This document shows, piece by piece, positions 12,841 through 30,904 of a stretch of 40,000 bases of DNA. A program made the position numbers and the translations under genes. Numbering within the stretch: the stretch's first letter is position 1; every line of letters starts with the position of its first letter. The DNA is from an uncultured Planctomycetota bacterium (GTDB lineage Bacteria; Planctomycetota; Planctomycetia; Pirellulales; Lacipirellulaceae): contig CAVRBU010000002.1 of assembly GCA_963719315.1 (NCBI GenBank), forward strand, positions 1,526,433-1,566,432, in the 5' to 3' direction. The notes beneath the pieces are model-generated. The model ran no database searches. It saw only the letters and a list, made by a program, of their open reading frames with translations, and was not told the origin of the DNA.

Positions 12841-14277
12841 ATGTCCCATACATTTCAACTAGACCATTTGGCCCTCACCCGCCGCGAACTCCTCCAGCGT
12901 TGCGGCATGGGCTTCGGTGCGCTCGCTCTGGGTAATCTGATCGTTGGCGCTCAGACCGCATCCGCCGCGAGTACGAACCCGCTTTTGCCGCACGCGCCCC
13001 ATTTTCCGGCCAAGGCCAAACACGTCATTCACCTGTTCATGAACGGCGGGCCGTCCCACGTCGATACGTTCGACCCCAAGCCAATGCTCGACAAATACGC
13101 CGGCAAGCCGCTTCCCGGCGGCACGCTGCCGACCGAGCGACCGACCGGGGCTGCCCTCCCGTCGCCGTTTAAGTTCCGCAAGTATGGCCAAAGCGGCATC
13201 GAAGTCAGCGACATTTTCCATAACGTCGGGAACTCGATCGACGATATCGCCGTCATCCGCTCCATGCATGCCGACATTCCGAGCCACGAGGCGTCGCTGT
13301 TGCTGATGAATTGCGGCGACGCCCGGCAGATTCGCCCCAGTCTCGGCTCCTGGCTGTGCTACGGCCTGGGGAGCGAGAACGAGAACCTGCCGGCGTTTGT
13401 GGCGATGTGCCCGCATGGATATCCAATTCAAGAAACGCAAAACTGGCAATCCGGTTTCTTGCCGGGTGTGTACGAAGGATCGTACGTCGATACACAGCAC
13501 ACCAAGATCGAACAGCTCATCGAGCACATCCGCAACGGCCGACTCTCGCTGCCGCAGCAGCGCGAACAACTCGATTTGCTGGAACGATTCAACGCCCGCC
13601 ATGCCCAGGCACGGCACGACGATGCGGCACTGGAGGCTCGCATCCGTTCGTTCGAGCTCGGTTTCCGCATGCAGACCGAGGCGGCCGAAGCATTCGACGT
13701 CCGCCGCGAGCCGCAGCACATCCGCGACATGTACGGCCCCGGCGTGCAGGCCCGGCAACTACTCATTGCCCGCCGGCTGGTCGAGCGGGGCGTGCGGTTC
13801 GTTCAGTTGTGGCACGGCGCCGGCCAGCCCTGGGATAGCCACGACGACCTCGAAGTTCGCCACCGCGAGCTCGCCGGACAATGCGACCAAGCAATCGGCG
13901 CCTTGCTGGTGGATTTGAAGCAGCGGGGCCTGCTCGATGAGACACTCGTCATTTGGGGCGGCGAATTCGGCCGCACGCCTTCGGTCGAACTGCCGAAGGC
14001 CGGCTCAAATGCGGGCAAGATCAACGGCCGTGACCACAACCACCACGGCTTCACGACCTGGCTCGCCGGCGGCGGCGTCCGCGGTGGTTACGTACACGGC
14101 GCAACGGACGACCTGGGTTTCAAAGCAGTCGAAAAGCGGGTCCATGTGCACGATCTCCACGCCACGATTCTGCACCTCCTGGGCTTCGACCACGAAAAGT
14201 TCACCTACCGCTACGCCGGCCGCGACTTCCGCCTGACCGATGTGGAAGGGCACGTCGTGCGGGAACTCATTGCGTAG
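12841..14277 (+). CDS. DUF1501 domain protein (sulfatase-fold, Tat signal)
   Basis: TRRELLQRCGMGFGALALG twin-arginine leader, then GGEFGRTP and NGRDHNHHGF motifs. This is the usual downstream partner of DUF1549/DUF1553 genes. Confidence 0.9.
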   Translation: MSHTFQLDHLALTRRELLQRCGMGFGALALGNLIVGAQTASAASTNPLLPHAPHFPAKAKHVIHLFMNGGPSHVDTFDPKPMLDKYAGKPLPGGTLPTERPTGAALPSPFKFRKYGQSGIEVSDIFHNVGNSIDDIAVIRSMHADIPSHEASLLLMNCGDARQIRPSLGSWLCYGLGSENENLPAFVAMCPHGYPIQETQNWQSGFLPGVYEGSYVDTQHTKIEQLIEHIRNGRLSLPQQREQLDLLERFNARHAQARHDDAALEARIRSFELGFRMQTEAAEAFDVRREPQHIRDMYGPGVQARQLLIARRLVERGVRFVQLWHGAGQPWDSHDDLEVRHRELAGQCDQAIGALLVDLKQRGLLDETLVIWGGEFGRTPSVELPKAGSNAGKINGRDHNHHGFTTWLAGGGVRGGYVHGATDDLGFKAVEKRVHVHDLHATILHLLGFDHEKFTYRYAGRDFRLTDVEGHVVRELIA

Positions 14278-14356
14278 ACTTCGTAGGCAAGTTGCGCCGA
14301 AATTTGCATTCCGGTAACAATTTCGCCGATTGAAGTTGTCACGATAGACGTAATCG

Positions 14357-14601
14357 AGGGTCGTTCGACGACCCTTTCCCGCGGCTGCGGTCTTAGGCCC
14401 GCCGTTTACGGCGGGTCGATGAGGTCCCGAAACACGATGGGGAGCCCCATTCATGGGGCTTCTCGCATTACTTTACGGCTGAAGCCATCGCCGCGAGAAG
14501 CCCTGTAAACAGGGCTTGGTGCTGCTCCGTTGACCCTCACCAACCCGTCGTCAACGACGGGCCTAAGACCACCTTCGGTGGAAAGAGCCGTGAACGGCTC
14601 T
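14357..14601. repeat. 245-bp nested dyad-symmetric element made of local tetraloop hairpins
   Basis: The arms mirror around about 14479. Hairpins are at 14357-75, 14398-415 (cccgccg-ttta-cggcggg), 14443-60 (agcccca-ttca-tggggct), 14498-517 (aagccctg-taaa-cagggctt), 14544-61 (cccgtcg-tcaa-cgacggg) and 14584-601 (agagccg-tgaa-cggctct). Long-range pairs are ggtcttaggccc 14389-400 with gggcctaagacc 14559-70, and ggcttctcgc 14457-66 with gcgagaagcc 14493-502. Confidence 0.85.
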
Positions 14602-14658
14602 GCAAGTCGCTAAACTGTTGCGCACTCCGAGTTTCGGAGAAGCTCGGCTGCATCCAAC

Positions 14659-14705
14659 GAAAAAAACGACTCCCGCCGCTAGGACAGGAGTCGCTTGTTT
14701 TTTAT
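14659..14705. terminator. Bidirectional intrinsic terminator between convergent genes
   Basis: A-tract, stem cgactcc (14667-73) / ggagtcg (14687-93), then cttgtttttta T-tract. Confidence 0.65.
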
Positions 14706-22327: not shown

Positions 22328-22431
22328 CGTCAGAGCGGGCCAGCAAGGCGGGAAGCGGAACCGGCACTGGTTCAGGTGGGAAGCTGAATTATAAACGGCA
22401 TTCCCGGCAAATCCAAGCCGCAGGACGAATG

Positions 22432-22553
22432 GGTAGTGTCCTAATTTGCGGCACAACAAGCTTGTAGCACGGACTTCAGTCCGTGATTCTCGTACGGACT
22501 GAAGTCCGTGTTGCAAAGTTCCGGTCCGAACGGTGCCAAATTAGGACACCACC
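22432..22553. mobile_element. 122-bp MITE-like element with 17-bp TIRs and 8-bp target-site duplication
   Basis: TIRs are ggtagtgtcctaatttg (22432-48) and caaattaggacaccacc (22537-53), matching 16/17. They are flanked directly by GACGAATG at 22424-31 and 22554-61. The interior holds acaagcttgt plus hairpins cacggac-ttca-gtccgtg and acggac-tgaa-gtccgt. No ORF. Confidence 0.75.
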
Positions 22554-22645
22554 GACGAATGGGTCTCAAAGGCACGAATCTTTGACCGTTCGCGATTGGC
22601 GCCTGGAGGCGCACCCCCCTTGGCGGCAAAGGAGCTACTACTCCT

Positions 22646-27613: not shown

Positions 27614-28713
<1,100 letters not shown>

Positions 28714-28715
<2 letters not shown>

Positions 28716-28794
28716 GTCCCTTCTGCCGGAAGGGACCTCGGCGAGATGGCAACGCTTGTAACTGACTTCAGGTCCCGCTCTGCAAGCGGGACCT
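28714..28794. terminator. Two related hairpins between convergent gap and mch
   Basis: aggtcccttc-tgccg-gaagggacct (28714-38) and aggtcccgct-ctgca-agcgggacct (28770-94). No U-tract, so terminator function is inferred from position only. Confidence 0.45.
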
Positions 28795-28821
28795 ACTCAG
28801 CGCCAGGCCAAGATTGCCGGG

Positions 28822-29772
28822 CTATTTTTTTGCAAACGACTCGGCGAGCACGTCGTAATTCAAATTGCCGTATTTGAAGGTCGAGCCAGTTTCACAATTG
28901 TTGAGGATCACCACCGCCGGACTGAACAGGTGCGGATCGATGCGATAAAAATCGTGATCGTAGCGTGCAAATATCTCCGCAAACGGTCGTCCATAATCGG
29001 GCGACGCACTGCTTGGCACCTGCGGCCCAAATTTCTCGATGGACGTGTCATCGCCGCCAACTTCCAACACCACACCGCCACCGTAGAGAATCGCGTCGTT
29101 CGCCCAGCCGAGGGCGGCAAAGTCATTCATCGCCAGAGGCGGTAACGGCGCGAGGCCCGCAGCCCGCTCGACACCCTCCAGTTCGAACCCCAGCACGTGC
29201 AATTTGTGCAGCGCGGTCTCCACGCTGCGGGCCACTATTTGAATCGTGCCGGCTTGGCTCGACGTTCGCGCCGCCAGCAGCGTCAACCGATCGGGTCTAA
29301 TGTCGCACTTCGTGGCGATATCAATGCACACACGGTCGGGCGGTAATTCACCCGTTTCCAATATGCCCACGCATACGTCCGGCTTTTCGCGGTAACCAAT
29401 CGAGTCGAATAACTCCTCGCGACCGGCGGCTGCTCGCATGGGACCCGAGCCCATCGCGAAAAACTTTTCGCCCTTGATCGCCCACCCTGCATATTGCGAC
29501 GCCATGCACGCCACGACCGGGCTGCGAGTACTGACGTATACCTGCTGCGTCGCGGGAGCGTCTTCATCCGCGGCATTGATGTCGATCAACCCCAACCCAG
29601 ACATGCACACCGAGGCTAGCCGCAATCCCGCCTTTTCGCTACCCGGTGCATTCACGCCGCAATCAATAATCCGCGTCCCGCAATCGAGTGTGCTGACCGC
29701 GATGCCGAGCGCGTTGGCATCAGCGACCATCGCGTTACAAAGTTCGAAGGCGCGCTCGTTGAGTGTCTGCAT
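28822..29772 (-). CDS. mch: Methenyltetrahydromethanopterin cyclohydrolase
   Basis: 316 aa with full-length resemblance to Mch (LDCGTRIIDCGVNAPGS, FFAMGSGPMRA, RTSSQAGTIQIVARSVETALHKL). Confidence 0.88.
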   Translation of the reverse strand: MQTLNERAFELCNAMVADANALGIAVSTLDCGTRIIDCGVNAPGSEKAGLRLASVCMSGLGLIDINAADEDAPATQQVYVSTRSPVVACMASQYAGWAIKGEKFFAMGSGPMRAAAGREELFDSIGYREKPDVCVGILETGELPPDRVCIDIATKCDIRPDRLTLLAARTSSQAGTIQIVARSVETALHKLHVLGFELEGVERAAGLAPLPPLAMNDFAALGWANDAILYGGGVVLEVGGDDTSIEKFGPQVPSSASPDYGRPFAEIFARYDHDFYRIDPHLFSPAVVILNNCETGSTFKYGNLNYDVLAESFAKK

Positions 29773-29829
29773 CCACCCATTGTAAAACGGACTGGTCGCT
29801 TAAGCGACCAGTAACCCGCACCAGAAATC

Positions 29830-29904
29830 GATCGGAGCCCGCAGCGCAAGCAAAGGTCGATGTGGCGGCGCGTAACACCCTTGCTTGCGCTGCGGGCTCC
29901 GATC
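29830..29904. repeat. Perfect 24-bp inverted repeat with 27-nt loop
   Basis: gatcggagcccgcagcgcaagcaa (29830-53) and ttgcttgcgctgcgggctccgatc (29881-904), 46 nt downstream of the DUF1559 gene's stop. Confidence 0.9.
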
Positions 29905-29950
29905 CACACAAAACTAATGTGCCTTAAGTTGCGCGAGAGGTCTCGGCGCC

Positions 29951-30904
29951 TCACTCATCGCCCGGCACGATCTCACCGCCGCCGATCGTGCTCAGCGCTT
30001 TGAGCACCGCCAACGCGATATCCGGCTTCAGACCGCGAACGTGGCCGTCCAGGAACACGGCTTGCACCAGGCCACCCGAGTGCATGCTGCCGAACTTGTT
30101 GCGGTCCTTGTCGTCGATGCTGGTGGCCAGGCCGTCTTCCGTGCAGCGGAACGTCGTGTGCGGCGTGTCTCCCGGAATCGACGCCGTATCGCCGATCTCA
30201 TAGTCCTCCATCTCCGTCGCCGTATTGTCCGGCACAGGCGGCAGATGCCGCTCGGCGATCGCGATCGTTTTTGAAAGCCCGTCTTCCACTTGCCGCGCGC
30301 TGATGTGCGAGCCGCTGAAAATCGGTCCCGCTTCGGCGCGGCTGTATTGGCCGAAGACCGTGGCATTTTCATCCTTGCCGACCATTCCGGTCAGCAATTG
30401 GATGCCGGCGTTGGCCGAATAGTCGGCCAGCGTTGCCGAAGCCAACACCACGGGCGGCGCGTTGTTGTTATCGAAGTTGCGGTCGGCCGCCGCCCGCCGC
30501 CGGCTGGGACATGCAAATGTGTCGATCGGCGTACGCATGGCGGCCGAGTTCTTCGGATCATCCACGCGAGCCTTTGAATCATAACTGTTATAGATCGCCG
30601 TCTCTTCCATGTACGGTAACAAGAAGAACGCCCACGACACGGCAAATTGATCGAACCGGTTGCGGCCCATCGGGAACGCCTTCCGCGTGTCGTGATGGCT
30701 CTGCACGGCCAGGCCAATCTGCTTGAGATTGTTCTGGCATTGCGATCGGCGGGCCGATTCGCGGGCCGCCTGAATCGCCGGCAGCAAAAACGCAATCAGG
30801 ATGCCAATGATCGCGATCACGACCAGCAATTCGACGAGCGTGAAGCCTCGTCGCGAAGCAGGTCCGACGAACCGAGGAGGACATCGGAACTTGCGCAAGC
30901 GCAT
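29951..30904 (-). CDS. DUF1559 protein with prepilin-type N-terminal cleavage/methylation domain
   Basis: GFTLVELLVVIAIIGILIAFLLPAIQAARESARRSQCQNNLKQIGLA and C-terminal FLDGHVRGL motif. Confidence 0.9.
   Translation of the reverse strand: MRLRKFRCPPRFVGPASRRGFTLVELLVVIAIIGILIAFLLPAIQAARESARRSQCQNNLKQIGLAVQSHHDTRKAFPMGRNRFDQFAVSWAFFLLPYMEETAIYNSYDSKARVDDPKNSAAMRTPIDTFACPSRRRAAADRNFDNNNAPPVVLASATLADYSANAGIQLLTGMVGKDENATVFGQYSRAEAGPIFSGSHISARQVEDGLSKTIAIAERHLPPVPDNTATEMEDYEIGDTASIPGDTPHTTFRCTEDGLATSIDDKDRNKFGSMHSGGLVQAVFLDGHVRGLKPDIALAVLKALSTIGGGEIVPGDE

Follow-up and report, generated by a model that had tools for sequence, protein, structure and literature searches.

The 245-base nested palindrome at positions 14357-14601 of the window, the 40,000-nucleotide stretch of DNA that was analysed, is very probably part of a non-autonomous mobile element built of two layers, in which the fused ends of a Y1 transposase unit lie inside an IS66-type MITE. 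The inner layer (14357-14601) would be a gene-less Y1 (HUH tyrosine, IS200-like) unit whose two ends became fused where a gene of about 160 amino acids had been located, and its hairpins are most likely bound by the Y1 enzyme on single-stranded DNA. This palindrome would have been captured once inside the MITE of an IS66-family insertion sequence (IS), and the composite would have spread by DDE cut-or-copy transposition, with an IS66-type transposase acting in trans and leaving 8-bp target duplications. From the comparisons described below we infer that the Y1 protein binds and cleaves the hairpins as single-stranded DNA, that an IS66 transposase mobilises the composite, and that the gene-less form arose by internal deletion. 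A first-pass annotation of the same DNA had rightly seen selection on local structure in the palindrome, but had missed its mobility, the origin of its arms in a Y1 unit and the enclosing IS66-type MITE. A full-text literature search found no description of the palindrome family in Planctomycetes.

Architecture and setting of the palindrome

All modules that the first-pass annotation had listed for 14357-14601 were located. The left arm (14357-14466, + strand) runs from hairpin H1 (14357-14375) through a mini-hairpin (14379-14390), GGTCTTAGGCCC, hairpin H2 (14398-14415), an unconserved spacer and hairpin H3 (14443-14460) to the motif TCTCGC (14461-14466), and its counterpart in relatives is the arm that precedes the Y1 gene. 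TCTCGC pairs with GCGAGA (14493-14498), with which the right arm (14493-14601, + strand) begins; H3' (14499-14516), a second spacer, H2' (14544-14561), CCACCTTCGGTGG (14569-14581) and H1' (14584-14601) follow, and this arm corresponds to the one downstream of the Y1 gene. Between the two arms lies a junction segment (14467-14492, + strand) containing the central GGCTGAAGCC hairpin (14477-14486), and it is at this point that relatives carry the Y1 transposase gene. The + strand folded with -140.9 kcal/mol, compared with -98.8 +/- 4.9 kcal/mol for dinucleotide shuffles (z = -8.6), the - strand gave a z-score of -10.0 against such shuffles, and none of the 200 shuffles was as stable as the palindrome.

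Every example of compensatory stem change between the two arms that had been put forward from the letters alone was found in the sequence. The statement that all loops are tetraloops failed for H1, whose loop here is TCG (or TTCGA, when the closing T-A pair is open) and which has TTCA in relatives. Two competing folds had also been proposed; the 10-bp central helix does clash with H3 and H3', but the 6-bp TCTCGC/GCGAGA helix is compatible with both. The bounds of the element had been drawn too narrowly, for the repeated unit spans 14314-14621 and has target duplications outside it.

The open reading frame (ORF) upstream of the palindrome encodes a DUF1501 protein (Pfam, 491 bits), and its stop codon (14275-14277) precedes H1 by 80 nt, the distance originally reported. 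A bidirectional intrinsic terminator (14660-14700), likewise recognised as a separate structure in the earlier reading, lies outside the element, and it is also conserved in congeners where the locus is free of the element. A query composed of the two joined flanks matched three congeners (G015, G009 and G014) contiguously, and the element is absent there; about 70 nt separate the DUF1501 stop codon from the same terminator, beyond which lies the Cys-rich gene. Subtracting 316 nt from the window restores the stop-to-terminator spacing of these three genomes. The element appears to be absent from the orthologous site in the three congeners, a reading based on spacing, the intergenic DNA being too diverged to define the junction at base level. 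That these congeners have the terminator but no element at an apparently orthologous locus agrees with the earlier proposal that the element is not needed for termination. The window copy has probably inserted between the DUF1501 stop codon and a pre-existing terminator.

Copies of the element and the enclosing IS66-type MITE

The genome search that had been recommended for counting copies revealed a multi-copy element, with 13 full or partial copies in the genome from which the window derives (G000, hereafter the source genome; 5.93 Mb in 20 contigs, 90.7% complete) and diverged copies in 11 of 23 congeners. Four copies of the source genome are full and one is 5'-truncated, four have the left end ...GATTGAAG fused directly to varying inner points of the right arm, three consist of the right arm only, and one combines the same ends with a different interior of 270 nt. 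The right end ...CTGCAATCCGCTAAACTGTTAC is common to all 13, and the left terminal repeat is present in nine of them, joined to differing inner points. The copies are intergenic, and a rough ORF-based estimate put some after 3' ends, some between divergent genes and some in tandem arrangements, with no consistent orientation. No promoter-like site was found at the element, and an Rfam 15 search of the element and eight related loci returned chance-level matches only (E >= 0.4), without a match to Acido-Lenti-1.

Several individual copies are rearranged. In the copy at G000:C2:631943-632377 (- strand), about 270 nt of other hairpin-rich DNA with stems of the CCCTGG/CCAGGG type take the place of the middle; the two MITE ends, H1, the mini-hairpins and H1' are still there. 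The short copies at G000:C13:103527-103772 and C15:31272-31418 have a right flank in common, which closes 44 nt beyond them with an additional solo terminal repeat, CTTCATGCGGCTAAACTGATA; MITEs may be arranged in tandem or nested here. A 656-aa ORF (28507-30477, + strand) has a right-arm-only copy (G000:C9:28572-28703) within its first 70 codons, and its translation may in truth start further downstream.

In the window, the outer layer comprises a left terminal inverted repeat GTAACAATTTCGCCGATTGAAGTTG (14314-14338, + strand), a linker between this repeat and the palindrome (14339-14356, + strand), which is common to the full copies of the source genome and weakly conserved in congeners, and a right terminal inverted repeat CTGCAAGTCGCTAAACTGTTGC (14600-14621, - strand), which abuts H1'. 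The target duplications GCATTCCG (14306-14313) and GCACTCCG (14622-14629) on either side match at 7 of 8 positions. The consensus of the 25-nt terminal inverted repeat is GTAACAGTTTAGCCGATTGAAGTTG, and it matches, at 24 of 25 positions, the end of a complete 1534-bp IS66-family IS found on the public contig L144, which is bounded by GTAACAGTTTAGCCGTTTGAAGTTG and its complement and contains a 480-aa ORF for a DDE_Tnp_IS66 transposase (142 bits). Besides the window copy, 8-bp target duplications were observed at copies C4 (8/8) and C6b (7/8) of the source genome, at core-carrying composites in G006 (7/8) and G019 (8/8), and, in G006 and G012, at MITEs that lack the core but have the same terminal repeat (8/8 each), and by our calculation the chance of a match of at least 7/8 is about 4e-4 per pair. 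Copies C1, C13a and C9a have no recognisable target duplication. An IS630/mariner reading of the TA...TA flanks was ruled out because the adjacent G/C belongs to a GTAAC...GTTAC repeat of the IS66 type with 8-bp duplications.

Two fragmented congener assemblies have the terminal repeat of the MITE at a distance of 34-98 nt from many of their contig ends, a pattern typical of multi-copy ISs, at which assemblies break; a full IS behind the repeat was sought in congeners G005 and G013 and was not found, the repeat being present there only at contig ends. The source genome has three intact IS66 copies of its own, also with 8-bp duplications, whose terminal repeat matches that of the MITE at only 19 of 25 positions and whose transposase is 60% identical to the L144 transposase; the closer-matching IS type was found in other genomes only. 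These three copies (transposase matches at G000:C3:149075-150502, C2:1246568-1247995 and C1:311299-312726) have matching ends with the terminal repeat GTAACACACCAGCCGTCTGAAGTTG, and their 8-bp duplications, two of them perfect and one 7/8, are so well preserved as to suggest recent activity. A fourth copy (C2:1775311-1776370) was matched in two pieces, with the middle of the protein missing.

The same composite is present in G006 and G019 with an identical right junction and a recognisably homologous left linker, and its capture therefore predates these species or the composite moved between them. A different outer inverted repeat was seen around two gene-less cores, CAGGATTATGCA (12/12) at L033 (G011) and CAACATTATGCAAGTGCTG (18/19) at L036 (G022), and these two loci hint at capture by a second MITE type.

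Y1 transposase genes between the palindrome arms

At 30 Pirellulales loci, 10 of them in congeners (all loci of the gene there) and 20 across the order, the arms of the palindrome flank a gene for a Y1/HUH transposase of 140-165 aa, in the same order and orientation. The gene was detected in 21 of 201 genomes and 19 of 118 genera, with one or two copies per genome. In G012, about 30 nt separate the left arm (H1, mini-hairpin, H2, H3, TCTCGC and GGCTTGAGC) from a 163-aa ORF that matches Y1_Tnp (PF01797, 75 bits) and the NCBIfam IS200/IS605 transposase model NF033573 (72 bits against a cut-off of 55); the last codons of this gene enter GGCTCAAGCC-GCGAGAAG-H3', after which H2', the mini-hairpin and H1' follow. 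The counterparts of the window's GGCTGAAGCC hairpin are GGCTTGAGCC ahead of the gene and GGCTCAAGCC where the gene ends. In two gene-less copies (L038 and L050) the sequence ...ATTATG, which includes the start codon, is fused to the 3' end of the gene, TGGCTCAAGCC, a fusion that would be the scar of the deleted gene. Since such a scar exists and the arms flank a Y1 gene elsewhere, the central GGCTGAAGCC hairpin of the window copy would be the junction of the two ends. At L065-L074 (for example L043:2080-2123) the right arm encodes the last 10-15 codons of the Y1 gene, giving conserved C-terminal tails such as VAQAGAARRPVNGPG.

The Y motif of the protein reads YVHNQKEHH, the signature Y---Q--HH being found at 28 of the 30 loci, and an HVH motif is present. 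Proteins of this clade end soon after the core, without the long C-terminal tail of the four other Y1 genes of the source genome. A PDB search gave eight matches at E <= 1, all of them to IS608, ISDra2 or archaeal IS200-type TnpA, with IS608 and ISDra2 TnpA as the closest (E about 5e-5); no E. coli TnpA-REP chain was among these eight. The Y1 loci of G005 and G019 share one upstream context (carB, as read at L066), and the contexts of the other loci differ; the source genome has a different neighbour at the site upstream of carB, which makes it uninformative for the exact ends of the Y1 unit. For naked cores, those without the MITE, no empty counterpart turned up.

No cognate Y1 gene was detected in the assembly of the source genome, which contains only four Y1 genes at 27-31% identity; at a completeness of 90.7%, a cognate gene could have been left unassembled. 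Nor were any hairpins of the palindrome family found in this genome outside the 13 MITE copies, and the palindrome has therefore most likely spread here only as cargo of the IS66-type MITE. The four Y1 genes (G000:C2:1904682-1905062, C3:130263-130628, C3:132831-133214 and C14:2282-2677) share the Y---Q--HH motif and a longer C-terminal tail, ...EYD.RY.WD. They were rejected as partners of the palindrome because their flanking hairpins are of other types, each gene having a distinct family, for example CATCCC-TTC-GGGATG, CCAGGGGC-TCAC-GCCCCTGG or CCGTGGGC-GCCA-GCCCACGG, and the genome therefore hosts several such systems.

Extra arms were seen at two of the gene-bearing loci: in L068 (G017) the right arm is followed by another left arm, and in L071 (G004) the left arm is preceded by a duplicated right arm, which resembles the REP clusters around RAYT genes. 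About 7 of 17 cores (L036, L047, L060, L038, L050, L037 and others) have the motif (T/C)GTC 3-8 nt left of H1, and the G022 copies have TTGTC a few nt beyond H1' on the right; either could be a cleavage or target motif of the Y1 enzyme. An attC-like site, considered on account of GGTCTTAGGCC/GGCCTAAGACC, was dropped, as there is no cassette array, the core in relatives is ATTAGG and not GTTRRRY, and the link to a transposase explains the layout.

Selection on the hairpins and relation to known systems

Covariation, which the first-pass annotation had proposed to examine, was assessed on 20 aligned cores without the gene, drawn from 13 genomes. Under the model of local hairpins, 96.3% of the pairs were kept and 21 of 60 had changed on both sides, compared with 6.8 +/- 1.7 in shuffles; none of 500 shuffles reached 21, and slid controls gave 3-7. 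Under the arm-to-arm model, 87.7% were paired and 16 of 72 pairs had two-sided changes, against 12.3 in shuffles, 12 of 500 of which reached this value; the arm-to-arm pairing breaks exactly at the columns of local-stem variation, and its covariation is not clear. Stems, loops and inter-hairpin motifs are far more conserved than the spacers across the 13 genomes, and the H2-H3 and H3'-H2' spacers showed no conservation in the 20 cores. Local stems thus covary, and the earlier interpretation as selection on local structure rather than a decaying duplication is upheld across species, with the local hairpins conserved and the long arm-to-arm hairpin not.

Around the Y1 genes of the 30 loci, 60 of 68 upstream loops are TTCA, TTTA or TTGA, and downstream 56 of 64 have the complementary sequences TGAA, TAAA or TCAA, a polarity (TTYA upstream, TRAA downstream) that is kept across 19 genera. 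The stems have been replaced wholesale, with 36 distinct sequences upstream and 28 downstream, as in the turnover from CCCGGCG to CCACCAGC and from AGCCCCG to AGCCGGC. Shape and loop are kept, the stem sequence is free and the strands are mirrored, a combination that fits an HUH enzyme reading hairpins on single-stranded DNA. A strand-mirrored loop pattern is not expected from a one-strand RNA, and the mirrored polarity, together with the transposase link, favours single-stranded DNA over RNA as the form under selection. Recognition of the hairpins by a Y1 enzyme would explain the compensatory stems, the TTYA/TRAA polarity and the freely drifting spacers. A covarying nested palindrome would here be mobile DNA, with covariation most likely arising from selection on transposon-end hairpins and not from an RNA gene, and such elements could be masked when planctomycete genomes are screened for non-coding RNAs.

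The hairpins are intact while linkers and spacers diverge even in the composites of G000 and G006, for which no cognate Y1 gene was found, and IS66 mobility alone does not explain this. Their state would also be expected if the array had been co-opted by the host or by the MITE, as a protector of RNA 3' ends, an insulator between convergent genes or a DNA fold uniting the MITE ends, its conservation reflecting that role; REP elements stabilise upstream mRNA, and the window copy occupies a 3' untranslated position ahead of a terminator. We consider co-option unlikely all the same, given the mixed contexts and inconsistent orientation of the copies (by the ORF-based estimate), a locus that appears to work without the element in three congeners, and a mirrored two-strand loop pattern that is predicted by DNA recognition and not by a one-strand RNA. 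The strong fold z-scores on both strands and the covarying local stems would equally suit a family of structured non-coding RNA genes, the copies being paralogues. This reading is very improbable, since no Rfam match rose above chance level even at E <= 1, no promoter-like site was found, and the terminal repeats, target duplications, apparently empty sites, truncated variants and a transposase between the arms point to mobile DNA.

Intrastrand templated repair can yield apparent compensatory changes in short inverted repeats, and a C.A intermediate in H1 of copy C2c is what would be expected if a neutral, decaying inverted duplication had its short palindromes kept by template-switch (quasi-palindrome) correction in the absence of selection. 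Such a neutral origin is hardly credible in view of the far stronger conservation of stems, loops and inter-hairpin motifs than of spacers in 13 genomes, the loop polarity shared by 19 genera and the recurrence of the same architecture around a gene. The reading as fused Y1-unit ends inside an IS66-type MITE may tentatively be extended, as a possibility to which we give rather less than even weight, to an undescribed REPtron-like system of Pirellulales, in which a Y1 nuclease of the subclass-1.2 type would recognise arrays of three or four hairpins by shape and TTYA loop, and gene-less palindromes would outlast the gene through IS66-type MITEs and host- or MITE-level selection on the array.

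Among described systems, REPIN-RAYT pairs or REPtrons (Nunvar 2010; Bertels & Rainey 2011, PMC3116915; Ton-Hoang 2012; Quentin et al. 2018, PMC6006769) resemble the family in having a low-copy Y1/HUH gene flanked by inverted hairpin repeats (here at the 30 loci of relatives, not in the source genome), dispersed gene-less inverted doublets whose structure is kept by compensatory change, and orphan repeat populations in genomes that lack the gene. They differ in the protein motif (Y---NP in class 2 TnpA-REP, Y---Q--HH here), in the arms, which are single REPs of 20-40 nt there and about 110 nt with three or four hairpins here, and in the GTAG foot (5' GT[AG]G), which is absent here; moreover, the doublet in the source genome travels inside another transposon. 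TnpA-Y1 subclass 1.2 has the signature Y---Q--HH and is generally without such terminal structures (Quentin, Siguier, Chandler & Fichant 2018, PMC6006769). The signature, the low copy number and a protein near IS200 TnpA agree with this subclass, whereas every gene found here, in Pirellulales, has elaborate inverted hairpin arms, and the clade is missing the long tail seen in the four other Y1 genes of the source genome. The Planctomycetes-rich class 3 has other motifs (NHVH, W[TA] and YV..EQ; PMC6006769). A Y1 subclass described as generally lacking terminal structures is now linked to a conserved multi-hairpin repeat family across one bacterial order, and the conserved TTYA-loop hairpins offer concrete substrates for its biochemistry.

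With IS200/IS605 elements such as IS608 and ISDra2, and with PATEs, the gene-less IS200/IS605 derivatives of Haloquadratum (PMC3119063), the family shares a Y1 TnpA (NF033573 above cut-off), subterminal hairpins at both ends and two-end non-autonomous derivatives. Its ends are inverted with mirrored loops, however, in place of similar hairpins on one strand, and its one or two gene copies per genome are far from IS-like multiplicity. The inner layer is analogous to a REPIN or a PATE. The outer layer resembles MITEs of the IS66 family in its 25-nt terminal repeat starting with GTAA, its 8-bp duplication, a non-coding unit of less than 450 bp whose interior varies and the presence, within the genus, of an autonomous IS related to it, but its cargo consists of the fused ends of an unrelated single-strand-type transposon. 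Such fused ends could keep spreading after loss of the enzyme by riding in a DDE-type MITE. REP dimers nested in longer palindromes are known as GTAG-15 in Anabaena and CGTC-1 in Halothiobacillus (Di Nocera et al. 2013, PMC3733652); there too a hairpin doublet is regularly embedded in a longer inverted-repeat element, but the outer palindrome was connected neither with a named IS family nor with target duplications.

The window contains a further palindromic MITE of about 120 nt at 22424-22561 (element at about 22432-22553), which is far more abundant, with about 100 distinct blastn matches of at least 100 nt in the source genome. Its ends are GGTAGTGTCCTAATTTG.../...CAAATTAGGACACCACC, and it is flanked by the 8-bp duplication GACGAATG.
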